From the NCBI GenBank assembly GCA_951406725.2, contig OX597825.1:51522001-51586000 (forward strand): a stretch of DNA of 64,000 bases, read 5' to 3'. The notes under the pieces were generated by a model that made no database searches, was not told the DNA's origin, and was given only the letters and a program-made list of their open reading frames with translations. The first letter of the stretch is position 1; each line of letters opens with the position of its first letter. Positions 2,470 through 59,900 of this stretch are shown here, piece by piece. The DNA comes from Octopus vulgaris (lineage: Eukaryota). The translations under genes were made by a program, and so were the position numbers.

Positions 2470-5400
2470 TTCATATACACGCAACAGATTACACTGTTGG
2501 AAAAAACATCGGGCTACAACATCTAACCTTAGATGCCAAAAACCATCTTAAGTGTCCTAACTGTCGCTAATAACACTGTTTTCTGGAGCTGTACTGAACT
2601 GGGTTTTATGCCTATTTCCTCTATCCCTCTGTTCAAATATTTAAGGATAATTACCAATGCACCTATAAACACAGGAATACATTTCAGCTGAATATTCCAT
2701 AGTCTCTGTAATTCAATGTCTAGTTCCTGGTACTTTGCTATTTTTTCTATACATCTCATGCTGATTTTTTCATCATTTGAGATTGTAAAGTCAATTATCT
2801 GACACTTTCACTTTCTTTTCCTTTTATCTACTACTACTAAATCAAGCATTCTAGCTTCTGTTATCTGTCAGTCTCAATGTAAAAGTCACACAACATTTTA
2901 TATTTCTTGATAGCACTTTACAAGTTTCCTGTTCATACCGTTTATCAGTATGTTCAAATCCTAGCTTTCTACATAACTCCCAGTGGATTACTCTCCTTCG
3001 GTTGTCATGTATTTTCTTGTATTCTTTCTGTGCAAGCATGCTACATTCACTTGCTGTATGAGTAACGCTTTCCTCTTTTGACTTGCATAACCTACATTGG
3101 AAAGCAACTTGGTATTTGTCTACCTTAGCTTTTATCCACTTAGTCCTTAATGCTTGACCTTGCGCAGCTACTAGCAGACATTCTGTCGCCGTTTTCAGTC
3201 TTTCTTTCGGCAAACATAGCCATGTCTCACTACTACTATTTGCTGCAACTATCTTTGGGAATCTACCAAGCAAAGTCTTCACTTACCAGTCAAATACCTT
3301 TTGTTCTTTTTTCTTTTTTCTGTTTTTAACTTTTTAATTTGGTTTCCTTATGTCTTGCTGTGACTCTAGCGGCTTTTAATAAACTTTCTTCACTATTACC
3401 TACATAGGAGTTTATATCTACTCTAGCTAACTCTGCACAAACTTCTGATATTATCTCTCGTCCACCTTCCTTTCTAAGTAGCTATAATCTTACTACTTCT
3501 GCTCTTGGGGAAGTCTTCCATTCATATTGAATTCCTTCCTAGATCTTCAGTTTAGCTTTCCTAATTCAGTTTTTGTCCAATCTACAAAAGCTGCTGAGTA
3601 TCGAAGTAATGATACTGCATTAGTATCTACTGCCTGCTCTAGATTCGGTACCTTTAGCATAGACTTCATTAGCTTCCTTTCCCTTCTGATCTATCCAGTT
3701 TTCGTTTTCATGTCTATAGTTAGTAGTCTGTCAGATTCCAATACTCCCTCTTTCAGTGATTTTAATGTCTGGACATCTGACAATAGGATGCCATCAATGT
3801 TGACTACCTCTGCTCTTACCATGACTAATATTGCACATTTAACTATGCCAAATCCATGCCTGTATCTTTGCTGAAGTGTCTTACAGTCTGTATTAAGGAA
3901 TCTGTCTCCTTCCCATGCTTACTAACTAAAAAGATTCAGATCATCCATGTAGAGCAAATGGTTAATTTTTCCATTACTATATCTGAACTGAAAACTTGAC
4001 TTTTCCTTAATGCTAAACTGAGGGAGGGGGTCAAATATAACACAAATAGTAAAGGGGACAACGAGTTCCCCAGGAAAATTCTCTCTTCCTATTAGCTTTC
4101 CCTAAGACTGTAACATGAGTAGAGATCTACTTTCCATTTCTTTATGTTAAAGCCACTTAATTCTCATATGTTGTTTGCTATACTGAATACTCTCACACAT
4201 TAACTTATCTATGAGTATGGGATCATGTCATAAGATTTCTTATAATCTATCCATGCTACGATTAGATTTTTCTTTCTTTTACTTACTTTATAACGGCTTT
4301 GTCTATGTATAATAGATCATGCTTTCCTTTAGTCTTCTTCCTGTAACCTCTCTGTTCGTCTGACAGTAAATTCTGGTTGTCAAGATGCTTTCTGAAAGCA
4401 TTCCTCTAAACAGCTTCCACACGAATGGTAAGCGAGTGATTGGTCTAAAATCGCTAACTGTATTACACTTGCTTTTATCTTTCATAAGTAGTGTTTTTCT
4501 CCTTCTAGCCATCCAAGCTGGTATTATTCCTCCATTAAAGTAATCCTGAAGTTGTTGCCTCCGTCTCCTATGTAGAATGCTAAATTTCTTTAATCAGTAC
4601 CCTTGCACTAAATCTGGTCCTGGGCCCTTCCAATTCGGCATTTTCCTTACACTTTACTCATTAATACCCAATATCTGGCTGCTTCTCACTATTTCTTCCC
4701 TCAGTTTCTTTAACCATACTGCATCTCCATTATAATTGACTGGGCTATCGCAAATATTTCTCCAGAACTTTCTAGCTTCTTCTGCATTAGGCTTCTCATC
4801 TTCAGTACTTCGTTCTCCACTATTTAATCTGTTATAAAGTATCCGCTGGTCTCTTTCAAATAATCTGTACTGTTGATACTGGTCTATTCTTTTCTGATAT
4901 CTGGAGAGCATCACTGCTACTGCTATGATACGCTGTTTCAACTCTTCTGTTATTGTCCCAAATCCTTTCTCTTTGACTATGTATCTTTTCTCAAGGGAAA
5001 ATTTACATCTTGTGATTCCTAACTTGTTCAGTCTGCAGGCTTCTATTCTACTTAGATGGTTCTTAAAGTCTTCACTTTATTTTGAAGTCTCCTTTTCCAC
5101 ATTTGCTCTTTTTTAATCTTTCTTCTAGTGACTGCAGCCCTCATGCATAGATCAATAAGTTAGTGTCTCCTATATTTTTAGGATCTATCCTACTGATAAC
5201 AGAATCTCCTTCCAAGTCATTTTTAGAAGCTTCCATCTGTTGGTGTCTTTTAATGCTGGCAATTTCTACTTTATTTTTTTTTACTTATTACTTGCTACAA
5301 CTCATCTAAAATCTTCTGATCAACCTCACTTAAACCATTTAAGTCGCTGGTGCCAGTTGCCCTTTCCTTATTGGTAGCGCTATTATTATTTTTTCATTAG

Positions 5401-5900
5401 CGCTCTTCTTTGGTTGGAGCTGTATCGCTTATGCTGTTGTTTGCCTTTCCTGCTGCCTTGTCTTTCTTTTTCAGTTCTCTTGTGATCTCTTCTACCTCAA
5501 ATTCTGTCATCCAGTTTCTTCTTATATTAGCGTGAGATTGATCTACTAATCTCTGATCAATCACTTTAAACATACCTTTCTCTACCCAAAGTACTAACAT
5601 CCGTTTTCTATAGCCCATTCTGTGAGGTTCACTTTCTAAGTAACACTGCATCATTATCCTGTTTTCTTTGTCGGTTCACTACCTCCTTCTTAATTAATTA
5701 TCTGCTGAATCTCTATTAGAATAACAGCTGTGGTCAGTCTGCATCTTTCCTAAATGGTCCAGCTTCCTTTTCACTGTTACAACCAGAGTTACTTCGCAAA
5801 CCCTCGACTCTCATAAACCGGGGTAAGGTAACATTCGTGACCAACGTCATCACCGCTTCAACGTCAACTTTCAAGCAACTTTCTGTTGCATCATGTGTTG
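2470..5900 (-). mobile_element. R4/Dong-clade non-LTR retrotransposon (RT + CCHC + RLE), near full length but heavily decayed
   Basis: Collinear minus ORF pieces: N-terminal MMQCYLESEP..GYRKRM..QRLVDQ; SRYQKRIDQYQQYRLFERDQ..KFW; DFRPITRL; HLLYMDDL (cat ttg ctc tac atg gat gat ctg near 3940-3960); CRLCKSKEESVTHTASEC; KIAKYQELDIELQRLW..IPVFIGAL..LQKTVLL. The 3' end abuts a degenerate TTA/TTG tract. Confidence 0.9.
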
Positions 5901-13269: not shown

Positions 13270-14364
13270 TATTCCTTTCAACTGTGCGATACAATCGGAT
13301 ATACAGAACAAATTCAAAGTAATTCTGGAAAAAAATTTCCCTATCTCTCATAGATATCATAGAATTATTTTTAGGAAAACAGTTAGGATTTCTTATTCAA
13401 CCCTCCCAAATATGTCCACTTTAATAGCTAAGATTAATAATAACAACATTAAACTAGCCAGGAAAGATAGAAATAAAAATAATAATATCAGCATGAATAC
13501 CAATAGCAATTATAATAATACTACCAACAATAAAAACAGCAATAGTAACTATCAAAACATAGGTGAAATTAGTAACCACAGAATGACTAATAACATTAAC
13601 ATTAATAGTAATAATAACAATACCGATATTAATAGAAGTAATAATGTTAATAATAGAAATAATAGAAATAAGGCTAATGGAGAAAATAAGGAGAATGAAA
13701 ATATCAGTGATATCTATAACAACAATATACAGTCGGATAAAAAGACTAACAATAATAGTAACATTACCAATAATATAAGAAATCATGGTAGGACTTTAGA
13801 CCTAAATGATGAAATAGAAGGACCAATAAATAATAGCAATACTTTAGATACCAGCACCAACTATAGAAATGATAATCAAAATAATAGGAACCTAAGACAT
13901 CTACCCAGGAATAATCTAAAGCCTGAAGTTGTTCCTCCTGTGTGTAAGTGTAGAATAAAATCAAAATGCCCGGCACCTGGTCTATGTGGGGAAAATAATT
14001 AATCTATAAATGTACCATATCCACGGAGAATAACAAATATTATTACATTGGATGTACAATTAATTTTTTAGCCAGAGTTAGAAATCACATCTCGTCTTTT
14101 AAATTACGTCATAAAGCTGGTACCACCACACTTTCAAACAAAATCTGGGAACTCAAAAATAATAATAATAATTATAACCTTAATTGGGAAATAGTTAGGA
14201 GAGCAATTCCGTATAAAAATAGTAGGGTTGGTTGCCAACTATGCTCCATGGAGACGTATGAAATTCTAAAGCATAGAAAACATAGAAACTTATTGAATAA
14301 CCATATCGAACTAGGTCAAGTTTGTGTCCACGCTAAATTGAAGACTTTAAAATATTTTAAATGA
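13270..14364 (+). pseudogene. PLE ORF C-terminal part: RT thumb, Asn-rich linker, Cys motif, GIY-YIG endonuclease (one frameshift near 13999)
   Basis: IPFNCAIQSDIQNKFKVILEKNFP..H..I..KTVRISYSTLPNM...CKCRIKSKCPAPGLC. Then from 13999 in the -1 frame: LIYKCTISTENNKYYYIGCTINFLARVRNHISSFK..TTLSNKIWELK..NWEIVRRAIPY..CQLCSMETYEI..LLN..E...CVH, ending TGA at 14362-14364. The motif layout resembles Naiad/Neptune-type PLEs. Confidence 0.9.
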
Positions 14365-15404
14365 TTAGAATATTCGTAACTAGATAGATAGATATAACTT
14401 GATTTCTACTAGTATAGCACTGCTTTAAGTAGATAACTAAGAGTTCTCACACTACAGTTATCTTTTTCCTTATATCTGCATCAGTTGTTTGAGAACAGGG
14501 AAATGAATAGTACTTATACGCTGCTTAATTGAGACTTTATTTAATTTCAAACTCATAATTTTAAATTCTTAATTTTAAATCTTAATTGTGATTTTTAATT
14601 TTAATTCCTAACTTAATCTAATTTAAGTAGCATAACTCTAATAAAATAAAATGAGTTACTATAGCCCCATAATTCTATTTCAAAATTAAATAAATAAGGC
14701 TACTCCCTCGGTGATAATATGATTATCTTCATTATGATAGACAATCCCCTAACACCATGTAAATGATCTTCTAAGATTTGACCTGTAGTCCGTCATTGTA
14801 TGAATAATAAAGGCAACTCCTTAAGACAATATAATGAATAAATTAAATAAGTAAACTTTAATGACTTTTTGATAAGATTATACTTAGATTTTCCTAATGT
14901 ATTTTCTTTTGATTTTAGCATCTGACCCCTAAACCCCTGACTGTGTTATCTCTTTAGATTCTCTTTAAATTCATAGCTGATTTCAACAGCAATAAATTAG
15001 CTGTGTTACTGGTCAAAGAATAATATTCTCCTCTAGTTCCTAGATGCCTGTAAATTAAAACCAGACTTGCCGTCTACTAATTCTTCTGTATAACTAGAAC
15101 CCTCTTTTTTCTTTTTTTTCTTTTTCTTTTTTTCCCTTCTTTCCCTATTTCTTTCTCTTTCTCTTTTTTCTTTTTCTTCTTCCTATTCTCTTTTTCCTTT
15201 TCTCTTCTCTTTTAGTCCCCCTCCCCCCCTTTTTGCTCCCTCCTCCTTTATTTTCTCTCTTTTCTTCTATTCCCTTCCCTTTTCTATTCTTTGCCTCTCT
15301 AGAAAGCCCTTCAGCCTTTAAAAGTTAAATAGCTACAGCCTCTTGTGAGTAGCAGTAATGTGATTAATGTGGCAAATACCTAATCATATAACAAGAACTG
15401 ATAC

Positions 15405-15685
15405 CTACCTCATTGTGTTCAACCATTGATAAATTTATCGCCTGTGAATATGAAATTCCTCTTCATTTCTCTGGAAATTTACATCTACACCATTGGAAAT
15501 TGTGCATCTATACAAAGGATTAATTCACCCTCTCTGTAATGCTAATAAGCAGGAATTGAAACCCACCTTGTTGTGATTAACAATGGATAAATTTGTCGTC
15601 TGTGAGTATGTAATACCTCATCATATCTCTGGAAATTCATATGTGCACTATGGATTAGGTCACCTTCTCTGTGATGCTATTAAAA
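15405..15685 (+). repeat. Diverged tandem duplication (~160 bp period) in the PLE 3' UTR
   Basis: aac.at.gataaattt.tcg.ctgtga.tatg.aat.cctc.tcat.tctctggaaatt and cacc.tctctgt.atgcta.taa each occur twice. Confidence 0.8.
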
Positions 15686-15829
15686 CTTTTCTAAAATTCT
15701 GTGATAAGACTGTACATCATCTTTAAAGAACTTTAATGAACTTTGGAAATCTGTTTATGTTACTTAATTATCTACATTACTTCATGAGTATAGCCTCAAC
15801 CAATAGGATGTCTAGAGAACTCACATGTA

Positions 15830-15920
15830 TTTTAGCTGATGAGTACGGGACACGTTTATATGCTGTAATTTTTGCAACTTTTAATAAAGCCTGTCCTTGT
15901 ATGAAACGATTGTACTAAAA
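15830..15920 (+). ncRNA. Type I minimal hammerhead ribozyme (PLE-associated)
   Basis: ttttag-CTGATGA-[gtacgggaca...tgtccttgtat stem II]-GAAA-cgattg-TA-ctaaaa. Stem I is ttttag/ctaaaa, the triplet is GUA, and stem III is short and near-palindromic. Confidence 0.85.
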
Positions 15921-15950
15921 ACCTATCCATTCTTGTTGCTTCTTTCTCGC

Positions 15951-15997
<47 letters not shown>

Positions 15998-16039
15998 TGT
16001 GTGTGTATGTGTGCGTATATATATATATGTATATAAAAT

Positions 16040-17028
16040 ACAATAAATGGAAATCGTCAAACATAGCAAGCAGGAAAAGGACGATAGCAGCACAACGGCA
16101 AACAGAACAAAACAAATACACATCATTTGCAGCCAATTGCTTGTTGAGCCGGAGTCTGGAATGTCTACATAGTTTCGCCCATTCCTCTCCGATACTACAC
16201 GAAACCAGTTGGACCAATGGCATAAGCTGAAGGACAGTAAGCCCGTGAGCAAGGCAAAACGAAAGTACAATATACAAACACAAGGAAATAACAAACAGAA
16301 AGGGTCCTTCGACTATTGGACTATGTAACATGGGATATAGAACTACACATATATAATAGAAAAAAGCATTTCGGCTATACAGCAAGAATAAAACAAAACA
16401 GACAGTCTTTCGACTATCAGACAGTATCGTAAGCTAGTGCTAGGAAAAAGGAAATTGAAACATCTTAACTAACCGGGTGGCGAGACAGAACAGATGCAGC
16501 TGACCTCAAAGGCAGCCAGCTGAAAAAGGAAGACAATGTATAAACCGGACGGCAATCACTTAGTAGAGGAGTGGAGGAGTTGAAAAAGGCACAGGGACTA
16601 AGGAACAGGAGAGAGGGGAAAGAAATTAGAGGGACCTAATAATGAAAGGGAGGGCTACCAGGATGTGAAGGGGAGAGAGAAAGAGAGAAACAAGGTAAAA
16701 GGGAAGTGGGGAAGGAAAGCCAAATAGATTGAGAGGTAAGAGGGAGGGGAAAGGGATTAAAGAATACGAGAGAGGGAAAATGAAATCAGTGGGATAGAGG
16801 AACGATGGGGAGAGAGACAGGGAGGGAAAGGAGAGATAGAAGAGAAAGAGCTAAGGAAGAAAAACGAGAGGGTGAGAGAGACAGAGGGAAAGAGAAGGAT
16901 GGAAAAGGGGTAAAACCAGGAAAAGTGGGTGAGAGTCGTACATAATATTTAAGGGGTATCTTTTATTACAAAGTAAACACCCAAGTGTACGTAGCGCTGC
17001 ATGGATAAATCAATGGTAAATGGCAGAA

Positions 17029-17030
<2 letters not shown>
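16040..17030 (-). mobile_element. Non-coding ~1 kb element between (TA)n tracts with a structured RNA motif and GA-rich interior (family B)
   Basis: Bounded by TA microsatellites. Motif at 16132-16255, purine-rich stretch at about 16560-16935, no credible ORF. The layout matches 12165-13092 and 20205-21377. Confidence 0.6.
16132..16255 (-). ncRNA. Putative permuted hammerhead-like structured RNA motif (family B copy)
   Basis: Minus: gucca...uguag-UA-ucggagaggaaugggC-GAAA-cuauguagacauuccaga-cuccgg-CUCAACA. The loop is 16 nt and the spacer 18 nt. ucggag/cuccgg and gucca/ugggc pair. Confidence 0.45.
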
Positions 17031-17079
<49 letters not shown>

Positions 17080-17081
<2 letters not shown>

Positions 17082-17545
17082 ATTTTATTATGTTTAAATA
17101 TTGTTTGATAAATTTGTTCGAAATTTTTACCGGCATCCTCTCTGTCGCCGAGTATAATCTGCGTCTGCGCAGTGGTTTGAAAAGATAGGATTTACAAACC
17201 GTTAGTTCTACATGTGGATCTAGCGGTCTGTATGTCTGAAATCTAAAGGCTGTCCCACTGAAGAAAACTGGCCTTCAGCAAATATTTTTTTGCTGGAAAT
17301 AGTTAGAAACCGCGGTCTGGGAGATAGTTGAAATGGTAAACGTTTTTAATTTTCATTCCTTTCGTGAATTTATCCTTTATTGTGGTCTTGAGATTTCTAC
17401 TGATCTTTCTAGCAGAACGCTTTCCTATTTGGAAGCTTCTTATTGTATTTCTATAAGAATATTATATAGTCTAATTAATGACTAATTCGTTTATTGTGCT
17501 AGGCCACTGGTAATAATAATTTATTATTACCCTATTTTATTATGT
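17080..17545 (+). mobile_element. Short PLE terminal (pseudo-LTR-like) fragment between (TA)n tracts
   Basis: Contains a canonical hammerhead followed by a T-rich tail, with TA repeats on both sides. Confidence 0.65.
17253..17322 (+). ncRNA. Type I minimal hammerhead ribozyme
   Basis: tccca-CTGAAGA-[aaact..cagcaaa/tttgctg..agtta]-GAAA-CCGCGG-TC-tggga. Stem I is tccca/tggga, stem III is palindromic, and the triplet is GUC. Confidence 0.85.
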
Positions 17546-17574
17546 TTATATATATATTATGTTTATATATATAT

Positions 17575-17614
<40 letters not shown>

Positions 17615-17616
<2 letters not shown>

Positions 17617-17973
17617 CACCAACTAATACATACTAATACATACTAATACATACTAATACATACTAATACATACTAATACATACACCAACCCCATACATAC
17701 ACACGTCCAGACCTCTCATACGTACTAATACTCTCTCATACACACACACACACACACCCTTATACATACTAATACGTACTAATACATACTAATACATACT
17801 AATACACCAACCCTATACATACACACGTCCAGGCCTCTCATACGCACTAATACTCTTTCATACACACACACACACACACACCCTTATACATACTAATACA
17901 TACACCAACCCTATACATACACACGTCCAGACCTCTCATACGCACTAATACTCTCTCATACACACACACCCTT
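17615..17973. repeat. (CATACTAATA)n minisatellite within a three-copy compound tandem repeat
   Basis: 10-bp units plus a repeated block caccaaccc.atacatacacacgtccag.cctctcatacg.actaatactct...(CA)n-cccttat. Confidence 0.9.
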
Positions 17974-17974
17974 A

Positions 17975-18275
17975 TGTTGGAGCTGGTCACTCAACCCTAT
18001 TATCTCCCCTAATTTCGCTCTCGCGTCTCATATTTGATCTTTGACTTCTGGCCGAAATCAGATCGCCATGTTGGTTCGTTAGTTACTGCACGCATTTTTT
18101 TCTCTCCTTCTTTCCGTGTTTTTTTCTCTCTGTGTATCTTTCTGTTGAAGAGCGTAGGCTCGAAACGTTAAAGACTTGTTTTATTTATATTTCCTGAGCG
18201 CCATACTAATACAATTGTTTGTTTGTTTTCCACCTGCCTTCGTCTTTTGTCTATTTTCATAAAGCTTCCCGTTAA
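17975..18275 (+). mobile_element. PLE terminal fragment with variant hammerhead
   Basis: Pyrimidine-rich segment carrying the 18137-18174 motif and ending at a TA run. Confidence 0.55.
18137..18174 (+). ncRNA. Variant minimal hammerhead ribozyme
   Basis: tcttt-CTGTTGA-a-gagc(gtag)gctc-GAAA-cgtt-aaaga. Stems I and II are perfect, but the core deviates (A6 to U, plus one extra A). Confidence 0.6.
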
Positions 18276-18289
18276 ATATATATATATAC

Positions 18290-18546
18290 ACTTTATAATT
18301 AGGGTTCAGCAAAGATTTGCTTTATCACATACCGAAGTTTAGAAATAGCAGCCAAAGAACCTTAGCTATTTCCTCTACTTTAAAAAGAGACTTCCGGATT
18401 GTTTTCGAGTACTTTGTTTTTTTTTTTCTTCCGGGAGTCTCTTTTAAAATAGAGGAAATAGCTAAGATTCTTTGGCTGCTATTTCTAAACTTCGGTATGC
18501 TATTTCTATACTTCAGCAAATCTTTGCTGAACCCTAATTATAAAGT
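18290..18546. repeat. Long inverted repeat (foldback), arms ~110 bp, spacer ~30 bp
   Basis: actttataattagggttcagcaaagatttgc...gagacttccgga mirrors tccgggagtctc...gcaaatctttgctgaaccctaattataaagt. ORFs 18317+ and 18325- give near-identical peptides. Confidence 0.95.
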
Positions 18547-18667
18547 ATTACTTAAGTTTACCGTGAGATGGTCCTTTTTCATGCCGAATTCTACATGGTA
18601 AAATTATTGATTACTAATTAATTAATTAATTTTACCCTTTGTTATTATTTATATATATATATAAAGT

Positions 18668-18996
18668 GAGGGCGCGTGGCTTAGTGGTTAGGGCATTCGG
18701 CTCATGATCGTAAGGTTGTGAGTTCGATTCCCGGCGACGCGTTGTGTCCTTGAGCAAGACACTTTATTTCACGTTGCTCCAGTCCACTCAGCTGGCAAAA
18801 ATGAGTTGTACTTGTACTTGTACTTCAAAGGGTCAGCCTTGTCACTCTCTGTGTCACGCTGATTATCCCCGAGAACTACGTTAAGGGTACACGTGTCTGT
18901 GGAATGCTCAGCCATTTGCACGTTAATTTCACGAGCAAGCTGTTCCGTTGATCGTATCAGCTGTGACCCTCGTCGTCGTAACCGGCGGAGTCTTTT
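18668..18996 (+). mobile_element. tRNA-derived SINE with CORE/V-like central domain, apparently young and complete
   Basis: A box TGGCTTAGTGG, B box GTTCGATTCCC, then gtgtccttgagcaagacacttt...ccactcagctggcaaaaatgagt. TA runs lie on both sides. Confidence 0.85.
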
Positions 18997-19043
<47 letters not shown>

Positions 19044-19096
19044 GGTATCCGTATGTTCGTGCACCGACACGCCGCTGCCAATATTTCGAACTTCAA

Positions 19097-19317
19097 TACG
19101 AGGAGATGCTGAAAAGTTCCTCACTTTCAGGATGTCACGAAAGGCCTGATTGGAAGTCCAACCGTTTGAGTTCTTTAACGGGGCTTAGAAAATCTGAAGC
19201 GTCGCTGCAATCAGCGTGTGAAATTGAGAGGGGAATATGTTAAATAGAATTATAATTAACTGATCGTCCTGTATTTGTTTTTACCCAAAATCAGAAACTT
19301 TTCAGAACCCCTTCGTC
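19097..19317 (+). mobile_element. Mariner-derived MITE (~220 bp internal deletion derivative)
   Basis: TIRs tacgaggagatgctgaaaagttcct / agaaacttttcagaaccccttcg. The interior keeps the transposase C-terminus NLKRRCNQRVKLRGEYVK*. Confidence 0.75.
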
Positions 19318-19774
19318 TATGAGGTATAGTTTACATAAGTTGTGCAACGCAGTACACTGGCTATACTCAGATACCTCCTCGATTTTACATAACATCACTT
19401 CCGCTACGTTATTACATTTGTCTATATGGTTTCATGCTATGTACACATTTCTGTTTGAGATTTATTTTATACCATCAAGTTATCACCAATATTTACCAGT
19501 TTATCAATTTATTTTCCTTATTTTGTCTGATTTTCTTCTTTGCTTTTCATCATTTGTTATTATTTTTTTCTTTTTCATGAATTTACATCACCATTAGAAT
19601 TCACATTCCTTTTAACTAAATTTTTGCTGAATGATATTTTTGCATTTATATTTAGAATTATGCTGCATTTATAACGATAGACCAAGTGTATCCACTTTTA
19701 TGTCAAACAGTTTACGCAACCAACGAACAAGTATTTAAATGAAACTGAACATGGCTTTGAGTGAATCTATGCAT

Positions 19775-19874
<100 letters not shown>

Positions 19875-19977
19875 GTGTGTGTCTATGTGTACGCGCCCGC
19901 GTTTGTGTGTGCGTGTGTATATGTATGTATATATGTATGTATGTATATATATGTATATGTGTGTGTGTGTGTGTGTA

Positions 19978-20162
19978 GAAGGTTGAAAGGGAACACACGA
20001 GTTGAGATATATGGAACAAAAGTCAGGATAGAAAATGCTAAAATAATTTCTTTTAATTTTTCCAAAATTTAATTGTTTTCCATAATTACAGTTGAAATTA
20101 TGAATGAAATGTTTTTTTTTATAAAATTATTTTAGCATTTTCTATCTTGACTTTTTTTCCAT

Positions 20163-20165
<3 letters not shown>
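19978..20165. repeat. Inverted pair of PLE termini (same family as 63166-63340)
   Basis: 20008-20049 is the reverse complement of 20124-20165, and both match 63181-63240. Confidence 0.85.
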
Positions 20166-20211
<46 letters not shown>

Positions 20212-20283
20212 AAAGTAAAAAAATATACAAACTGGGACAAGAACGTGAAACATTTAGAAGACGACACAAAAAACACGGACGGG

Positions 20284-20429
20284 ACATTCGAAGCCTTCAA
20301 TCTTCAGTCAAGAACCGGATCATCTTCGCAATTTCGGCTGATTAATCTTGAGATTGCTCCGACCTGGGCAGCCCCAAAGGAAAATCTAAGCCAAGCGCAT
20401 TAGATTCCTTGGAAGAAAGCCTCGAATGT
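20284..20429 (-). ncRNA. Putative permuted hammerhead-like structured RNA motif (family A, copy 1)
   Basis: Minus: 15-bp outer stem acauucgaggcuuuc/gaaggcuucgaaugu, whose G-U pairs fix the strand. Inside: ggcug...gcaa-UC-ucaagauuaaucagcC-GAAA-uugcgaagaugauccggu-ucuuga-CUGAAGA. Confidence 0.55.
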
Positions 20430-21130
20430 ATACAAAACAAGGACGGAAAACGGACGATGTTACACGAATAAAAATACAAAAATGTGTAAAAACAATAATG
20501 ATAGCACGAATAAGAATACAAAATACGTAAAAACAATAATGATAATAATAATAACAAAACCAGGACGTCAAAGACAAGCGTCTTTTTGACAGGACGAGTA
20601 TAGTTTTGAGCTGGCTATAGAAGAGTCACTTAAGGCCACAGCGAGGCAAACAAGTGTGTCTTACCACAATGACTGCTGGACGCGAAAAGGCAGTAGTCGG
20701 TGGCTGGTCATGTGAGGAAAAAAGAGAGGAAAAAGAGGGACAGATGAGGAGAGAAAGAAGGGGAACAAGGAACAAAGGAGGAGAAGAAAGAGAGGGAAAG
20801 AGACAGATCAAGTGGAGTGTAAGGTGTGAGAGGCAGAGAAATGTAGGAGAGGGTGACATATGAAGAGAGAAAGAAGGGGAACAAGGGAGGAGAAGAAAGA
20901 GAGAGAAAGAGACAGATCAAGGGGAGTGCAAAGTGTGAAGGCAGAGAAATGTAGGAGAGGGGGGAGAGACAGTGTTGTAGAGTCGTACCATGTGTTAAAG
21001 AATATATACTTACGTATAGGGTTAAAAAGGGGTACGTAGTCGCTTATGTACATATGTAAAAGTAAAAAAATATACAAACTGGGACAAGAACGTGAAACAT
21101 TTAGAAAATGACACAAAAAACACGGATGGG

Positions 21131-21276
21131 ACATTCGAAGCCATCAATCTTCAGTCAAGAACCGGATCATCTTCGCAATTTCGGCTGATTAATCTTGAGA
21201 TTGCTCCGACCTGGGCAGCCCCAAAGGAAAATCTAAGCCAAGCGCATTAGATTCCTTGGAAGAAAGCCTTGAATGT
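21131..21276 (-). ncRNA. Putative permuted hammerhead-like structured RNA motif (family A, copy 2)
   Basis: Same motif 847 bp away. The core elements are unchanged and the differences fall in the outer stem. Confidence 0.55.
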
Positions 21277-21479
21277 AAACAAAACAAGGACGGAAAACGG
21301 ACGATGTTACACGAGTAAAAATACAAAAATGCGTAAAAACAATAATGATAGCACGAATAAGAATACAAAATACGTAATGATCTCTGGTTTTTATGTTGAT
21401 GATCAGCCGTTTGCCAATCGGGAGTTAAATTAGTAGCTCACAGTTGATACTAACGCTAACTTACTATTCTTCTAAGTTC

Positions 21480-22800
21480 GCCTTAAAAAAGCTCTGCACA
21501 AATCTTAAGAATTTTGACGTACTTTTGGCTGGAATTCTACGCGTGGCTACATCAAAACTGCATCGGTGATACATTCAGATTCTTCCTCCCTGAATAGTTT
21601 GATATACTGCCTCGACTTTTCATATCACTACCGATTACAAAACTGCATTCACATTGATGCTAACTTAATCCTTGCCTTAATCTCTGAAGGTTTTGCAAAG
21701 AGACAACTTTTAATTGGTTCTAGAAGCTGTGGATACAGTAAATATAGGGTCTACCGTGTAGTAATTCTTCTGAATATTTGCTTGCTCATTCAGCTGCTCG
21801 TCATCAAGATGTTTTGGTAACATAAGACATTTGTGAATATGTTATACGGGTGTGGTAAGAAAAACATGAAGCGATAATTACTCTGATTTTCTTTATCACT
21901 TCATAAATCAAGAAAGTATTCGGTTCCTTCCATAGCGAAGGGTTTTGACTTCTTTAATATATTAATTGTAACCAGAGTGAAGAATTTCTACAGCTGTTTG
22001 TTTTTCCCGGTTCTTTATATTTTCGTTGTTATATAATCATACATTGGCGCTTTATCTCCCTACGTCTACATTTAATCATTTTCTTTCTCCCAGGCCAGAA
22101 TAGGTAGCATTTCTTGTAATCTCAGTCTTTTTCAATCATGGCTGACACTCGATCATCCATCGCCACAAATACAGAAAATGTCCACAGACATCCTCCACTT
22201 CATTTTATCACTCACCATGATCCATATTTGCTCTCCAGTGCCGTCACCGCCGATATACCTAATGCTATCCCTCTTCTGACTACTTTTAGGCTTTTCTTCT
22301 CTACAGCAGACTGCATCAGCTTCTTCATGCCAAAAGTTCCGAAGTCTGTTTTTAGTTCTTGTCTTATCGTCTTTCACAGAATGAAATAGTGAAGGTGATC
22401 TTTCATTTTCTTATTCGTCCTTCGTTTCACTATATCCCCGCGATCCTCCGTTCTCTCCCGGAAGCTTTACAGTTTTTCATTTTAACATCAGGCTTTCATG
22501 TTTTGATTCCAGTTTTCCTTCTCAATAGAATTCGTCAGCTTCTTAATATTGAAGACCATGATGTGTCGGACATTCATCGAAATGAGATATGCATTTTCTC
22601 TCTAATCTCATCCATGACGAGCTTTACTCGTATCAAGTGATGTTTGCTGCCTGTGTTCAATGGCACAATGTCTGAGATATTCTGCAATATACGTCGTTTG
22701 TCTGTTAGAATGTCGTCAATATTACTTCGAGGCTGAGCAGATAATGTGAATAGTCAGGTCCTTCTCATTGAAGATCGTTTCTTGAATAGTCTCGTTCCGA
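21480..22800 (-). mobile_element. RTE-like LINE remnants (APE C-terminus and RT N-terminus), heavily decayed
   Basis: Manual minus translation: SNIDDILTDKRRILQNI..NTGSKHHLIRVKL (APE end) and WKEPNTFLI..DKENQSNYR..PYNIFTNVL..HLDDEQLNEQANIQKNYYTVDPIFTV (RT start). Confidence 0.7.
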
Positions 22801-23739
22801 TTTAAAGTATTTTGCCACTGTCATGTACACTAAATATTTTCTCTTATAGTTATTTTATTCAACTGAAATTTTAAAGATTATTTCGCGCCAAATTGCCCCT
22901 TTTCGACCTTTGCATTGAAATATTCCATGTCAATGACAAGATAATGGAAGAGGTGGACAACAAAATTTCAGCAATATGTATAAAAGTAAGCCAAAAAACA
23001 ACGAAATGTATGGTATTTGAAAACGCGGTTAACGCTAGACAGTAAACATATGCCAATGCATAAACGCTGAAATTTCTTCAGATTTCAAGTAGTGAGAATG
23101 AATTTCGCTTGGTTAAAATATTGCTCCATGCACAATTGGAGAAGGCCCATCGTACTATCTCGATTAACACTGTCCTACCTTATTTCTTATACACAACTAA
23201 GTGGTTGGTTGCTACTCAGGAAGGTTAACTGGCTGGAAATAACAGAGTGTTATGGAAAGAATGTGCCAAGAATATGATTGTTAGAACGTACCCAAAACGA
23301 TGTAATTTGAGAATATACTGGTGTGAAGAATATAACAGTGGAGTGTATATCACAACCGGCGTACGGGATATGTCGCAAAACACAGAGAACGGGTGAATGT
23401 TTGAAATAATCAAGAGATCAAATGAGACCAGTCGAAAGATTACCATGGGAGAATGACATACATAAAAAAATTCGGGTTCTAGTGGAAGAATAAAAGTGCA
23501 TTTTGACTAGCGATATATAAAAACATCCCACCCTCTGGTCGACTATACGTATGTATACAAGGGTTGGAAAACATTAAGGAGTGTTGTTACAGGCAAGTTT
23601 TATTATTTAACGCATAGTTACTTTAAGTTTCGCAAAATCACAGTTTTAATACATCGAGGAATTGGTTCGTACAAGTTATGAACGGTTGTTAGGGGAACGC
23701 TGGGCCATTTTTTAAGTAAAACATGTTTTAGATCTTTCA

Positions 23740-24530
23740 GTAATAATGGCGGAGTGAAAAAATGCAACATAGATGCTCGTTTTCACTGAGATCCATTGAT
23801 TATGGTATGTGGAAACCAATCCAAGTGTTTTACTCGAATTTTGTACTCTTCGTGCCAGTTTCGAAAACTTTAGCCTTTTGAACCGGTGCATTATCACTCA
23901 GGAAGATTACGCTGAGGTCATCTAAAAACGTTTGTGTCATAATATGGAAGTGATCAGACAAAATACTCAGATAATTCTTAGTGGTATTTCTACGATGTTG
24001 AACAATTGAAGGACCTTGAGAATTTCATGATATGGTTACTTAAATCAACGCAGAGTCAATTCCATGCTTTACTGTAGTGGCCAAACAGTCATGATTGAAG
24101 GCTGAGTTCTCTCTTGATATAAACACGTAGCAATGCGGGGAGAGAAGGTAAATGATGAATTATCAAAGATGATATTGTTCCAGTGAAATTTCGACTACTT
24201 CCGATAGTCTACACACCATTTCCCCAGCTATCTAATGTTGACAGAAGATAAAGTTCAGAAATTGCTGGCCTTCCATGATATTTGGCTTTATGGAGCTCAT
24301 AAAGAATGGTGTTGGTTGACACAACCTTGGAAGACTGTTATTAGCGTTGCTATCACTCGCCTCTCTGTGGTTTCTTTCAGTGAGCATTGTCTTCTGTTCA
24401 GAATTCATTTTATCTTGGTTATGGAGTGTCAATACAATTTTGAGGGTGTGCCTCTTCAAAATTAAACAATTAAGGGGTTTTAATGACTGAAGCTCCAGCC
24501 ATACACGTTCTAACAATTTTTCTTCCATGG
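23740..24530 (-). mobile_element. Tc1-like transposase fossil
   Basis: Manual minus translation: VSTNTILYELHKAKYHGRPAI..WNNIIF..CLATTVKHG..YLSILSDHFH..IFLSDNAPVQKAKV..WHEE..VKHLDWFP. Confidence 0.8.
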
Positions 24531-26346
24531 AAATCTGATAGATCGAGTATTGTAGCTTATTTAAATATAAGTGTATAGGGAAAAAGGGGAAACATCATGA
24601 AGTACAAGGTATACATAATGCTTATGAATATATATAATGACTAGAACATTTTTGAATTTGTCACATTGCCAATAGACAGATTTAGTTTAACGTAAAATAT
24701 TGTTTCCATTATTTTGCTCAACCCTTGTCAAAATGTATTCGTGTGCGTGTGTGTGTAGTGGGAATTTTATATTCGTAGCACCAGCACAATCACCTATAAA
24801 GAATACAAAACTCAAAGTAATGCTCCAGAAACGTTTCAGATTCCAATAAATTTAATAAAATCCATCATTTCGTATTGAGGTCACCCGCTTTTAGCTGCAT
24901 TTGTTTGTTTGGGTGGTGAATATCTTTTAGATATTTTACATATCCTTGGAACAAGTGTTATATTTTATTCATAATCGCTAGTATATTTTCAGCTGCCTTC
25001 AAGTAGGACATATTGTCGTCATGCTGGAGCACTATAAAACTTATTGTGTATTGTTGAACTTAATGTATATATTGTGTTCACATTCATTAAAATGTTTTCT
25101 GACGGAACTGTAACGCAACAGTTGAAGTAAAAGTGAGGACTTTCTCCATGTATCATTGCCTTGTTTATGATTTCTAAATTATAGAAAATCTGAATATGTT
25201 TCCATCTTAAACTTATGCTGCTTCTACTGCGCCTATTGACTTGCAATTGAATTTGAATATTTTCACTTCTGATGTACGTTGATGTAGAAACTCGTCAAGA
25301 AGACGTTTTGCAGAATAAAATCATATCAAGATCAAACTTAGTGCCGTAAACTGAGTGCGTCTTTCGGCATTTTATTCTCATACCGGTGAATATATCAAAT
25401 GCGATGTGTTGTTTTCCCATGGTGTGCAGTTTCCTGTACGTGAAAATAATTATGATGTGGAATGATAAATGTGTGAAATAATTCGTCTCAGGTGATTAGT
25501 TGTTTTCTAAACGTTTTTCCATGTTGTCTCAGTTTACCTAGTTGTCAGAAATAGTATCAGCTCACCTAATCTGGTGACCAAGCGGGAGATTAATATTTCC
25601 TTCATTTCTCTCCATGAGCTACACACTGACACTGAAACAACTCTGGGGACTTGAAAGACATTTTCATATACATACGTCAATATGTACACTAGACCAGACG
25701 TAATTTAATTATGTTGACTAGAAGAAAAAAGTACAGTGACATCGAAAGGATACGAACAAGATAGCCTTCAGTTGATAATATAACTTTGTATCGATTAAAA
25801 TAGTTTCAAATAAACAGAGAACATAAAATGAAGACATACACCGTCTTATCGTTATAGTTTAATGTCGGAATCGTAAAAGACGCACAGTATAATGTGGGTA
25901 TGTTCTAATAAAAAAAACATTAATTTACTTATCAAATATTTATGTATTGCACCTTGGTCAAGCTAGAAGCAGATCACGTCTGGGGTAAAATATAAATTTG
26001 AATAAACAAAAAACAACCAACAAAAACTCCTTATTAATACACAATATTATATGACAATACCAATAGCGCTATGAATAGAAGAAAACTTTTCTGATAGACA
26101 TTTTAATGGTTTTTAGTCAATTTTAGCGACTGTAACAGATGAAGTTGTTATAGGCTGTACTATCATTATCCCAGATGATTACTTAAACCATTATTTCCAC
26201 CCGAGTCAACATTTTCTTTCGATACGCCAACATTACCCACTTAGTCAAAACACAGCCATTTTTGTCAATCACGTCTTTGTTCTTGTATTTGTTTGTTTCT
26301 TGTGTTTTTACGGGTGTCCATCTTTGTTGCTGTTGTTGTTGGTTCT

Positions 26347-26358
26347 ATTATTATGATG

Positions 26359-26415
<57 letters not shown>

Positions 26416-26450
26416 GTTATTATTATTATTATCATTATTATTATTATTAT
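26347..26450. repeat. (TAT)n microsatellite
   Basis: Directly visible. Confidence 0.97.
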
Positions 26451-29400
26451 AACTGTTGTTGTTATAGTTATTGCATTAACCTATATCATTAAAATGTTTT
26501 ATTTTACTTTACTCTATACAAACAGTCTTTTTTTTCTCATATATATATATATATGTATATATATATATTTACATTACTGAATCTGAATAGGTTTTAACGT
26601 TGCTTTTCTACGAGATTTGCATCAATGTTCTCTTTAACTATTTCAGATTCTCTGAAATTATATTTTCTTATATTTTGCGTGACAGTCACTGGTTGAATGA
26701 TTTTATTCTCTTCAGCAAATGTAATGAACAGAAGCCATACGGTTGTTGTTTTATTTTATTATTATATGATTCTGTGGGTAAGAACTATATTAGAAACTCT
26801 ATAGAAATTATTTGAAGAGTGATTCTAGAAAAATAAGTGAAGTTTCTCTACAATATATTATTTTCCGTTTCAGTTGTTGATTTGTGGTTATTTAGTGAGA
26901 GAAACAAACTTGATGAAACAGATGAAGCGGAGGTGTAACCATACAACGTTTTGATTTGCCTTTCAACAATAAAGCAGTTGAATAACTATTATCTTCCTAT
27001 ATTTATGTGTAGCCATCCAGTTCACTCCTCTTTTTCTCTGCATATTGTATGTCCATTCTCCCCTGTCTCTCTTTCTCTATATGTGTATGTATGTATGTGC
27101 GCATCAGCATCTATCCATTGACATATGTATGTGTTTGTGTGTGTATGAAAGAATGTGTATAGCTTTTTCTATGAAATGAAGTTTGAAGTTTAAAAAATAT
27201 ATAAATAAACGAGCAATTAGTGACATAAAACGCACACACAAACAGATACAGTATTATATTTAGACACAGTTTATACCATTTTAAAATAGCCTATGACCAA
27301 ACATGTCTATAGAATCACGGAAGTGCTTTCAGTTGGAACATAAAAGATCATCTCTACAATTAGAAACAGCAAAGTTTGGTTTATCATCGTGATGTATTTC
27401 TATATTTCTTTTTATTTGTTTTTCTCTGAAAGATGAGTTCCAGTAGACATTACGTGATGCTGTCAAAGGTTAGCAAATACTCTTGACATCAAATTTACCA
27501 TATGCCATACGTTTCTCAGTTTTTCGGACATCAGACAGTTGTGTTTATAGGGTTTCAAATTATTTATCGAGATTAGATAAGGACAAAATCTATATATCCT
27601 GTAATTGTCAGTGCATTGCAAATCTAAGCAATACCATTAACTTTTCATGGCCCAATATTATTGGTAGATAATAGGTGTCATGAGTATGCACAAAGTACTA
27701 CTAGAACAAAGTAGAGCAGAACATTTCATTGAAAGCTAATGACGTTTTTGTAAATAATTCTGATATTGTTGTATTTGTTTTCATGCTTATAATGGAACAA
27801 ATTCAAGTAAAGATATATTATATAAAATGCATGCTTTTGTCTCCATATGTAAAAAAATGGAGCACGTTTTGAGTAACACGGAATGATTTTGCTATTGTTT
27901 ACCTGAACTTCCGTTTTTCTCGGTGGTAAGTTCTTTGTTTAGTCGACGTAATGCAACAAATTGTTAAAAGTTTAAAGTATACTTAACCCGACTGCTAGTC
28001 CTTTACAGTACTGATACATAGAAGAAAACGTTACTTTTTCAATGGGATTTAAGCTAATCCGCTAACAAATATGTAATCCTGTTTCAATTCAAAATATCAA
28101 TACGTGAAGTTTGGCGAGTCTATTTTTATTAGTTCCTTGTATAATATCCACATTACCGATACTTTTGACAAATATTGCAAAATAAATTTTGCATGAAAAT
28201 CCCTTTCAAGCCTACAGACTGAGCTCTACGGTTAATGACCTACTTTACCAATTTTAGAGAGCTGTGTTTTGTAGTGAGGAATTGTTTGTGGTTTTATGGT
28301 AACTATTTTCGTGTGGCGGGCTGAGAAACTGGTGATCTACAGTATTCTGGTCATGAATACGACACTCCACCGTTGATACGAACCACTGCACACACACAGA
28401 GTTGTTAGCGAGATAATTTATGACCAGTATCTTCTAACTACCCTTAACTGAATAGGTTTTTCATAAGTAGTGAATTACACATTTTTGTTAAAAATCATTT
28501 CCTCACATGACCCATTACATAATTAAAGCATGTGTAGACATATATCATGTGGCAAACCATTCAAAGGCAGTATCCGTCCATTGTATAGGGCTGCTACTGT
28601 TTCTACCACCATCTAAATCGATCTACAGCTAGCTAGACTAATACACTAAGTGTTGTATTTGAAGATGCCACCTAAATGGACATAAATCGCATCATACATC
28701 TTTACACGACGAACATTTACATAGGATAATACTTCAAGATATGATCTAAAAATATAACAGAGCTGCTATAGATGGAAAGCCTTTGTTAATACACCTGCAC
28801 AGCCAAATTTGATCTGCTTCCAAATGACAACAGCAATCATTGATTAGGTGATGCAAAGACGGAATATCTAAACGCAGCGGTCAAATTGTATCAAAATCGC
28901 ACTCCACCATCTTGAAAAGGATACATCTTTTCTAAATTGTATTAAATATAGTCACAAAAGGGAATGTCATATCGAATTCGTCTCTGTAGATCCTTATTAG
29001 TGGAAACATTTTGAAATTCTGTGGAGGACATTCTATCATTATTTTTCAGTCTTTGGTATATTGAGGGTATATGTTCTTCAGGAGAGACTCTCGGTGTCGG
29101 TGAGGTCAAGTATTACTCGTAACCTCGAACATTCTTTACCAATGCCATTCATGTGCATGAAGCATAAGTTAATGTGCCCTTGCTACTCTCACAGCGGTTT
29201 TACCTTTAGGATTTTCGAGACAGAAGAGAAAATGTATTTTTCCACTAGAAGTAAAGCAATCACGTGTTTAATTATAGCAGGAAATTGCAGTCGAATATAT
29301 ATTTGCTCAATAATTGTACTGTAATTATAAATAGAACGACACTCATTGCAAATTGTTTCTGATGATCTTAATTATGGAATTAATGTAGGTTTTGTATTGG

Positions 29401-34733: not shown

Positions 34734-35739
34734 TATTTATTCCCTATTTAACAGTAGTATCGCCTTCATTCATTCCAGCAAAATTTGAATAAAACAAAAG
34801 GATTAATGAAACATATTTTAAAACTTCAAATTTAAGCAACTCATTCCTTGAATAATTCACTGACGAGGAGATATTAATCCGAAATATGCAACAATCATAC
34901 GCAGGGGAAGTAAATAGTAGAATGGAAATCTTAGTCATTTAATAAATCAAATGTGGAAGTGGACATAGGTGACCAACACAAACTTCACCTCCTTACCACA
35001 CACACACAAACACACAATAAAGACACAATGATAGTACTACAACCATGAAACTACCTAATCCTAAAAACGACGGCAGACAGATAGAGCAGAAATAAAGGGA
35101 GAGTGTAAAACACGATAGTTGAGTTATCCCAAGATTGCTTATGGCATCAAGATATGATTTCACCGAACTAATAACGTTACAGTTTCGGTCATACCCGAGC
35201 GATATAATAACGCTACAGTTTATAAATATCTGTTTTAATATATAATGACAAACAGTGATGATAGAAATACAAGTACATCGCAGTTTTTGTATAATTCAGT
35301 CACCGAAAACAGGATACAGCCATGATAGAACTGGCATTATATTTGAATGAATATATTTAAGTCGTTGTGGGAAGAAAAGTTGTTGGGATAATTTTGCAGA
35401 GACAGACTGTTCGGAAACGACGTTCACGATGCGCCTTACAATTTAGTGGGAGGTTATATTGAGTAGGCGACACGGGTAGACCTGGTGAAGAACGTATGTA
35501 ATAAACTAGTTGAAATGATGAGATATGTTGCATTATCGGATAAAATATGCAGTAAGAGTACACAGCAAAAGCGAGAATAGGAGGAGCAAACACACAACAA
35601 AACAGAAGTGGAAAAGGGAGGACGCAGCAAGCCCGTGATGATTATCTGTATTTTGAGTAGGAAAAGGTTTATTATCAGTCAAATACCCATAAATTAGATG
35701 GGACGTGGGATGTCTTTGTGAGCATATACGTTAATAGCA

Positions 35740-36990
35740 TATTGTACATGTGAGGAGCAACAGAATGCAGGGTGGTGTACGCTATCTGTATGGCTGCAGT
35801 AACGAACTTTAAATGTAAGCAGTAAAACTGTAGATTGGCACACACTCTCTGTATGAGTGCAGCGACAGGAACGAACTATAAATGTGAACAGCAAGTCTGT
35901 AGTGCAATGTAGTGTGTCTATATCGGCCTAATTTCAATAATGAGCCATAAATATGAGCCACTGAACTGCAGTGTTGCACACAGTGATTATATGAGTATAA
36001 CTTCTGTATGGACTCTAAGTGTAAGCTGCAGATGTGGGTGTGGTGCATAATGTTTGTATGGGTCGAGCTGCAGTACAGAGCAACAAATGTGAACATCAAG
36101 ACTGCAGTGTCAGTATGGCTCTAGATGCAGTAACGAACCATTAACACGAACAGCAAAACTGCAGTATGGTATATAATGTCTGTAAGAGTGTAGCTTCAAG
36201 CATAGATATAAGCAGTAGATATTAATTGGAGATATTAATTGGAACATCAAGAGTTCAGTGTGGTGCACAATATCTGTATGGCTCTAGCTAGAGTAACGAA
36301 CCATGAACATCAACAGTAGAGCTGCAGTGTTGTGTACAATGTTTGTAAGGGTGTAGCTTCGGTAACGAGCTATAAATGTGAGCGCAAGACTACAGAGTGG
36401 TGTACATTGTCTCTATTTACGCTATTATATTATACATGTAAGGAGCAGTGGTATGATATATTGTACACTGTCTGTCTATGAGTGTAGCATCAACATTATT
36501 TTCTACAATGAAACAGCAGTACTACTGTCTGGTGTAGCATATGACTTTAGCAGCAGTACCAAATTATGAAGGTAAAGAGTAGTACAATGTACTTTAGCTT
36601 ACCATACATGTGCAGCAAAAGCAGCATCAGGCTGCAACCCTTGCATAGGAGCAATATTCCCATCTGATGTATAGAATATGTAGTAGAAGTAGTAACAGTA
36701 GTTGCACCGGCGAACGCATGTGAGCTGTGGTACTCCATTGCAACTTGCTGTTTAAGTACCTTCGTGTGCAGTGAGCAGTGATTTTATCCGTGTGCATGTA
36801 ACAACACTGTCCTTCACATATGAGCAATGCTCTTTTATGGTGCAGCAGTATCACTGTGCAATCCTTGTTTGTCTATGTGGCTAGCAGTAACACAAATGTA
36901 CACATGTGAACCGCTCTCCAATGTTATGGAGTATATCCGTGTGTGCAGCACTGCACATGTAAGTAGAACTCCAGTACAATGTAAGGTAAA
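35740..36990. repeat. Diverged minisatellite, ~69-bp period, decaying to the right
   Basis: Recurrent ctgcagtgtggtg.acaatgtctgtatg.gtg.agctgcagtaacga.c.ataaatgtgaacagcaaga. Anchors at about 35811, 35880, 35949, 36017 and 36085. Confidence 0.85.
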
Positions 36991-38080: not shown

Positions 38081-38957
38081 TACAAAGGAGTACCCAAAAG
38101 TAACCGGAAATGTTCTCTGTGGGACAAGCCTGTTGTAGTTCAAACTTCTGCCGCTAGCAGCCACTTGTTGTAACCCTCAGGCATCAGTCTCCCAACCGAC
38201 GTCGTACTTCCATATGGTGCGTCTTTGCCCACCCCCTGTTCGTTGATTTTTGCGTTGTCTGAAAGCACAGTGTGCTTTTGTGAAATTATGTTTTTGCCGG
38301 GGAAAATATCAGCCGAAATAGCTATCATGCAGCTTACAAGGACGCTGACATGAGAAAAACACAAGCTTATGAGTGGTTTCTACTCTTTAGAAATGGTCAA
38401 TTGTCGCTTGAAGACCAACTTCGTTCAGGATTACCTTCGAACACCCGAACGAATGAAAGCCTCATGAAAATTCATGAATCCATCTTAGAGGACCGTCAGC
38501 GAACAATTGACGAACTTATTGATATAACTGGTTTGTACTGGAGCTCCTGCCAATGAATTTGAGCGAGGGATTGCGAATGAAAAAAGTTGCAGCACAATTT
38601 GTTTTTCACTTGCTCACGGAAGTCAAAAGCAGTCACGACTGAATGCGTCTCATGAAATGAAAGAACAGTTGGAAGTTGATCCGGACCTATTTAGGTAGAC
38701 CATCACTGGAGACGAAAGCTGGTGCTATGGAATATGTAGATGTGGAAGAGGTGAAGAAAAAAACGACGGATCCGTTAAAGGGCACCACTTCGCAAGAGTT
38801 CCAGCACTTCTTCGAATAGTAGAAAAAGCGTCTGTACCGATGTGTTCCTTGAAATGCACAATACTTAGAAGGCGATACAAGTGTAAACATGTAAAACTAA
38901 ATGAATAAAATAACATTGCAAAATTCTGTTTTTTTGTTTTTCTGATTACCTTTCGTA
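38081..38957 (+). mobile_element. Mariner element, internally deleted
   Basis: Starts tacaaaggagtacccaaaagtaaccggaa and ends ...gattacctttcgta. ORF MRKTQAYEWFLLFRNGQLSLEDQLRSGLPS..EDRQRTIDEL, then ITGDESWCYG. The rest of the catalytic domain is missing. Confidence 0.85.

Positions 38958-55371: not shown

Positions 55372-59900
<4,529 letters not shown>

Follow-up and report, generated by a model that had tools for sequence, protein, structure and literature searches.

The unit that is duplicated in part beside a (TA)n microsatellite in this Octopus vulgaris contig raises the question of what kind of mobile element it is, and of whether the hammerhead words within its repeats belong to a ribozyme. 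The window, meaning the whole stretch of DNA that was analyzed, is 64,000 nt in length and all coordinates refer to it.

Repeat structure and setting of the element

The element is composed of two direct repeats of 326 bp each (20205–20530 and 21052–21377), which differ by 8 mismatches (97.5% identity) and are offset by 847 bp, giving a total of 1.38 units. A preliminary description of this locus had reported the near-identical repeats and their period, the absence of an ORF, a GA-rich interior and insertion beside (TA)n, and each of these observations was borne out. Read on the minus strand, the upstream pseudo-LTR is the 5'-truncated copy 2 (21052–21377) and the downstream pseudo-LTR is copy 1 (20205–20530). 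Between them lies a non-coding interior of 521 nt (20531–21051) that is pyrimidine-rich on the minus strand, which is also the ribozyme strand, with 382 of the 521 nt being C or T. Repeat comparison identified an internal duplication of approximately 115 bp within the interior (20734–20853 and 20848–20961, minus strand), and a 41-bp tandem duplication (20463–20544) spans the boundary between interior and repeat. The longest ATG ORFs of the doubled unit are 108 aa on the minus strand and 64 aa on the plus strand, and neither could be given a coding role.

The microsatellite (20161–20208) abuts the repeat at 20205–20530 and, upon inspection of the junction, is the insertion target at the 3' end of the element, with the final four minus-strand bases merging into the (TA)n run. 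No target duplication is visible at the element junctions, and ARAGORN did not identify a tRNA within 19000–23000. The single-copy right flank (21378–23100) resembles a decayed minus-strand ORF, but its six frames did not match any Pfam entry, and nothing therefore points to the upstream repeat being the UTR of a neighboring Penelope-like element (PLE) ORF.

The hammerhead-type motif of the repeats

Each repeat carries a split-core permuted hammerhead motif on the minus strand, located at 20284–20429 in copy 1, where it was recognized from core words, stems, a descriptor and a covariance model, and at 21131–21276 in copy 2, where it was recognized with the descriptor and covariance model. The three hammerhead words of the preliminary description are found on this strand in the order that it gave, with C17 at 20352 and 21199. 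It regarded the core as scrambled, and although the words are indeed present, they form part of a coherent minus-strand fold whose stem II and two extra helices had been missed. The minus-strand order is cleavage site, GAAA and CUGAAGA, with the stem II partner upstream and with two helices, X and Y, replacing the link between A9 and G10.1. The complete wiring from 5' to 3' is X, hairpin Y, stem II', block S, block G, stem I'-CUGAAGA and X'.

In copy 1 all core bases are present, as are stems I, II and III of 6, 5 and 5 bp, a helix X of 15 bp and hairpin Y; copy 2 has two mismatches inside helix X. The 5' strand of helix X (20415–20429) pairs with its 3' strand (20284–20298), which begins 2 nt past A9 after two unpaired U residues. 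Hairpin Y (20374–20412) ends immediately before G10.1, from which the 5' strand of stem II (20369–20373) extends upstream of the cleavage site to form 5 bp with 20336–20340. Block S (20346–20357) contains a stem III strand (20357–20353), C17 at 20352 with the predicted cut on its 3' side, and a stem I strand (20351–20346). A linker of 5 nt separates this stem I strand of copy 1 from the stem II 3' strand, with which block G (20328–20340) begins; GAAA and the second stem III strand follow. The stem I partner of 6 bp and CUGAAGA (20307–20301) together occupy 20301–20313. A distal helix, formed by 20361–20367 and 20315–20321 with 6 of 7 possible pairs, bridges stems I and II at their far ends and is probably the counterpart of the I–II interaction stem. 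The features in this paragraph are all on the minus strand.

Together with X, Y and stem II, the core would make up a four-way junction, X being stacked on Y and stem II on the core. The continuous strands of this putative junction would be C11.1-G12 and X-to-Y, allowing stem II to remain stacked on the core, and stems I, II and III would cross as they do in non-circular permutations. Helix X is paired with a probability of 0.87–1.0 in a 176-nt fold; in folds of the whole element or of the circular unit the values drop to at most 0.07 for X and 0.08 for stems I and III, which speaks against easy folding; these models are pseudoknot-free and leave the pseudoknots unrepresented.

A loose core descriptor matched both repeats and one other site in the window, compared with 0.625 matches per shuffled window. 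When X and Y were also required, copy 1 alone passed in the window and 2 matches were obtained in 30 shuffles. The other loose match, at 29359, lacks X and Y and was rejected. CUGAnGA, GAAA, an NUH triplet and stems I–III of a hammerhead are all present in the element, but stem II does not directly follow A9 and an Rfam search of 15000–27000 up to E=1 returned no hammerhead match. At the canonical stem II position, 0–2 nt after A9, the downstream partner is just 1 bp in both copies. An alternative stem II partner of 4 bp is located 5 nt past A9 in copy 1 (20295–20292), and inserts of this kind fall outside the range of the descriptor. A type I reading that uses the bases following CUGAAGA was rejected by eye, with stem I being absent.

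Six hammerhead permutations have been derived under the assumption that CUGAnGA stays with its adjacent stem strands (Eckert et al. 2023, PMC10085705). The types SGC and CSG are described in that paper from metatranscriptomes and metagenomes only, with no genome of a known organism, and CSG is represented there by just two sequences, both from metagenomes. The element resembles these types in its full core, S-G-C order, crossing stems I–III, short I–II linker and a helix that bridges the distal ends of these two stems. It differs from them in that the stem II strand is upstream and detached from CUGAnGA, with X and Y at that link. The element has the block order of type SGC without an uninterrupted block C and is not of that type strictly speaking; the strand passes from A9 into X and reaches G10.1 from Y, so that the assumption of an uninterrupted block C fails here. 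Hammerhead variants with additional helices have been credited to Weinberg 2015, Eckert 2023 and Forgia 2023 (PMC13725137); a comparable layout does not appear in the accessible text of Forgia 2023 (PMC10162972) or of the review PMC6765202. No description of the layout was found in the full-text literature, a search with subscription papers outside its scope, and a prior description is possible.

Minimal type I hammerheads are known from PLE pseudo-LTRs (PMC4209133), and the motif of the element occupies the same position within a pseudo-LTR. Stem III is vestigial in the minimal motifs, which work as dimers; that of the element has 5 bp, and its motif could act as a monomer.

The same layout at Naiad Penelope-like loci

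The Naiad clade of PLEs is described as having no canonical hammerhead, a preference for (TA)n and, in some cases, unexplained 'core' or 'half-core' words (Craig et al. 2021, PMC8557442). Naiad loci were collected from metagenome contigs by the Naiad RT motif alone, with no use of a ribozyme motif, yielding at least 120 loci; the analysis drew on 80 of these that had flanks. Excluded from counting were L081–L120 (40 loci with too little flank) and L006, which repeats the family of L052; L025 was rejected as a motif.

Among the loci listed, the II'-S-G-C descriptor matched 10 of the 80 on the RT strand and none on the antisense strand, and 30 shuffled sets of the same loci gave a mean of 1.27 matches and a maximum of 5. 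Nine of these 10 listed matches are downstream of the RT motif and the remaining one, at L052, is upstream of the ORF in a pseudo-LTR-like position. The stem II partner is upstream in all 10 of the listed loci, where the canonical downstream partner does not exceed 3 bp. Helices X and Y, which the first descriptor does not require, accompany 9 of the 10 listed locus matches compared to 8 of 31 shuffle matches (p=0.0005). When the window is added to the 10 loci listed, all 11 sequences carry G10.1-C11.1 and 8 of them have an I-to-II linker of 5 nt. Core identity between the 10 listed loci and the window is 52–63%. A scan of viral contigs gave no matches.

When 7 of the 10 loci were aligned by sequence alone with MAFFT, 90.2% of cells paired, with two-sided change in 14 of 19 pairs, although the pairing of stems I–III in this set is partly circular because the descriptor selected those stems. 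None of 500 shuffles performed as well, and slid structures pair at 30–55%. Hairpin Y, absent from the first descriptor, is 98% paired with two-sided change in 4 of its 7 pairs; helix X was left unaligned by MAFFT and is not part of the covariation count. A covariance model built from the 7 loci, with the window excluded, ranks the two repeats of the window first in the 64 kb at 26.1 and 25.6 bits (rough E of ~1e-4), followed by the next match at 14.2, and also recovers L048. The third match of this model (35662–35747) lacks the core words and was rejected.

In four of the five long ORFs that were scanned, GIY-YIG lies on the N-terminal side of RT (E of 4e-6 to 0.017), which is the Naiad domain order, with scores below the curated cut-offs except for one GIY-YIG and two RT domains. 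Among published Naiad 3' ends, examined by eye with no motif selection, the layout is present in 6 of 23, namely Naiad-3_Chem, Naiad-2_Movir, Naiad_Plae, Naiad_Obim, Naiad_Ovul and Naiad_Esco (names by file order), the last with a decayed stem II. Three near-identical Acropora records retrieved by motif search also show it. Thirty-four of the listed loci contain the ORF end and at least 300 nt beyond it; 8 of these match the descriptor, L048 fits by eye, L033 and L035 (one family) are of type CSG, and 23 show neither layout, which counts against the layout being general.

The type-CSG hammerheads of L033 (3582–3686 region) and L035 are downstream of the Naiad RT, on the RT strand, and feature a long I–II interaction stem; the type-CSG descriptor gave 3 matches in 40 shuffled sets. 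Type CSG was also seen by eye in about six published Naiad ends, mostly from nematodes, and a further conserved 3' motif is common to bivalve Naiads (PMC8557442 File S5). Naiads may swap ribozyme classes. Several of the hammerhead-less 3' ends in File S5 have motifs that presumably resemble twister or HDV-like ribozymes.

We regard it as a real possibility, somewhat short of probable, that the motif is an active and undescribed hammerhead with a non-circular permutation and with a four-way junction that opens it between A9 and G10.1. This possibility extends to the motif being widespread in animal genomes as one of several missing ribozymes of Naiads, others of which use type CSG, in which the same pseudoknot is circularly permuted, and to its being carried by very large non-autonomous families such as this one. 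If this is correct, the layout falls outside the six hammerhead permutations thought possible, represents the first non-circular permutations in animal genomes and explains the 'half-core' words of Naiads. The argument that this very successful clade spreads without hammerheads would fall, and many genomic hammerheads would be escaping standard descriptors. A 146-nt construct with an exact predicted cut site would offer a handle on the role of ribozymes in PLE transposition.

The fold could instead be real and conserved and no longer cut, being retained as a hammerhead-derived handle for RT and endonuclease or as a 3'-end signal. The broken A9-G10.1 link, assumed impossible by Eckert et al. 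(PMC10085705), fits with such a loss, as does the frequently poor cutting of PLE hammerheads, of which 1 of 9 Xenopus dimers cleaved (10.64898/2026.07.22.740005) and for which minimal motifs are weak (PMC4209133). This explanation is nevertheless unlikely, as CUGAnGA, GAAA, U16.1-A15.1 and a non-G17, all required by the descriptor, co-occur far above shuffles with unrelated stems, which is hard to account for without catalysis.

Element class, copies and RNA template

The element is probably a non-autonomous PLE, most likely of the Naiad type, that entered the edge of a (TA)n run as a partial tandem of 1.38 units, with predicted cutting. It shares with Naiads (PMC8557442) the partial tandem with pseudo-LTRs, the (TA)n target, seen at this one locus at the 3' junction, and the 3' motif. 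Unlike Naiads, the unit does not have an ORF with N-terminal GIY-YIG, CxC and RT, and is therefore a derivative at most and not autonomous. The most likely clade assignment rests on the shared motif and the (TA)n target because no helper element was found and the stems of the element differ from those of published octopus Naiad ends. Compared with the listed Naiad loci, at least 120 in number, the unit gives one low-complexity BLAST match (E=4e-4). The earlier suggestion that a protein-less unit would be mobilized in trans is supported as a reading of the sequence.

The preliminary description had called the element retrozyme-like. Its reading of a protein-less PLE unit that is partially tandem, both repeats having a hammerhead-type core, is supported, and the element would work in the manner of a retrozyme or PLE pseudo-LTR. 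Retrozymes are defined by type I hammerheads in full tandem units (10.64898/2026.07.22.740005; PMC7229834), and this part of the comparison did not hold. Animal non-LTR retrozymes (PMC7229834) likewise are short, protein-less, PLE-derived units within the same size range with a hammerhead per repeat. In contrast to their type I hammerheads and two or more full tandem units, the element has 1.38 units with two complete motifs that are pseudoknotted and split-core. The type III hammerhead and 4-bp target duplication of plant LTR retrozymes are also absent, and the order of the motif is not that of type III. It is with Naiad PLEs, and not with type I retrozymes, that the upstream stem II and two extra helices link the element.

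Parts of the window are present in twenty public sequencing runs from 10 studies with four organism labels, none of which covers half of it. Contigs of 4 of the 24 listed runs (X1, X2, X5 and X7) were compared, unphased, over 20531–22030. The head-to-tail junction at 21051 was recovered in 21, 20 and 14 contigs of X1, X2 and X5, respectively, which are DNA-type or unlabeled runs. In X7, guessed to be RNA, the element is covered and the flank is not, and record 27 spans 20964–21091. Recurrence of the junction in X1, X2 and X5 indicates that the unit is a family of its own. Summed contig depth relative to the flank is approximately 12,000–76,000x for the ribozyme, 25–550x for the interior and 72–277x for the head-to-tail junction, and, although depth does not equal copy number, this contrast suggests that the motif is common to a very large set of elements, most without the interior, with the unit as a smaller family.

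The right flank is represented by one contig per run in X1, X2 and X5, which enters the element at 21348 with 30 letters of element sequence, a single letter below the threshold of the bridging rule. Ten differences in 683 bases are common to these contigs, and the insertion accordingly seems to be shared and to predate this 1.5% split. At 7 of the 8 positions that distinguish the copies, the family majority has the letter of copy 1; the eighth is outside the listed rows. A loose-end variant swaps the bases past the core, which by eye pair with the X strand of the window at 15 of 16 positions, and it lacks the alternative 4-bp stem II partner.

The preliminary description had allowed that other copies might be single, unrepeated 3' UTRs of a long autonomous element, or the duplication an assembly artefact. 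The first proposal agrees in part with most related public sequence, which matches the repeat and not the interior, a depth pattern that favors a local duplication or misassembly of such a 3' UTR. It does not agree with the recurring head-to-tail junction. The second is opposed by the 8 differences between the copies, by the junction contigs of X1, X2 and X5, by record 27 of X7 and by the single-copy contig from 21348 into the right flank, and a duplicated or misassembled 3' UTR is very unlikely to be the origin of the element.

For the preferred partial-tandem PLE, the motif would cut after C17 (20352 and 21199), perhaps with the assistance of a protein, processing read-through transcripts. 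The predicted cut-to-cut RNA is 847 nt in length (20352–21198, minus strand). The AUC cut sites proposed earlier at about 20352 and 21199 do coincide with the predicted C17 positions, but the 847-nt monomer proposed with them, taken as a linear RNA, would not serve as the template. The insert reaches 179 nt beyond the upstream cut site and 147 nt beyond the downstream one; it spans both cut sites and a linear cut-to-cut monomer therefore cannot be its template. A helper RT/endonuclease would nick the (TA)n and initiate cDNA synthesis from a fixed position, 147 nt downstream of the cut, using a template of more than unit length, for which an uncut tandem transcript would be more likely than a circle. 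The 7:1 asymmetry between the copies (p=0.07) weakly favors a tandem source. In a Poseidon PLE, RT initiation is internal, unprocessed RNA is the main template, and hammerhead cleavage required protein, with insertion in vitro not depending on that cleavage (Frangieh et al., PMC11167929).

Circles have been proposed for PLEs (Cervera and de la Pena 2014, PMC4209133) and demonstrated for type I retrozymes (PMC7229834), and a retrozyme-style cycle would involve cleavage at both sites, ligation of the 847-nt RNA to a circle and 1.38 rounds of RT along it. The unit length is inside the 51–972 bp range of animal retrozymes (Li et al., 10.64898/2026.07.22.740005), and a circle would account for a partial tandem across both cut sites, as proposed in PMC4209133. 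This cycle is rather unlikely for the element: a circle predicts repeats that are identical at insertion, and 7 of the 8 differences seem private to copy 2 (p=0.07, weak evidence), no end-to-end pairs are predicted for the cut-to-cut RNA, and the main template in a Poseidon PLE is unprocessed. An "end clamp" joining the ends of the cut monomer was also considered and is unsupported by folding.

Remains of other mobile elements are found elsewhere in the window. A C-terminal GIY-YIG fragment of another PLE is located at 13999–14361 on the plus strand (Pfam E=0.0017), which we take to be Hydra-clade-like, and no CUGAnGA follows it within 1.4 kb. An inverted repeat at 18328–18499 with 58-nt arms (97% complementary, 56 nt spacing) resembles a MITE-like hairpin. 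Open frames at 38284–38553 and 41257–41634 on the plus strand presumably resemble fragments of mariner transposases. LINE remains are present on the minus strand at 2854–5675 and at 56884–57630, the latter with an RT domain (RVT_1, E=3e-30).
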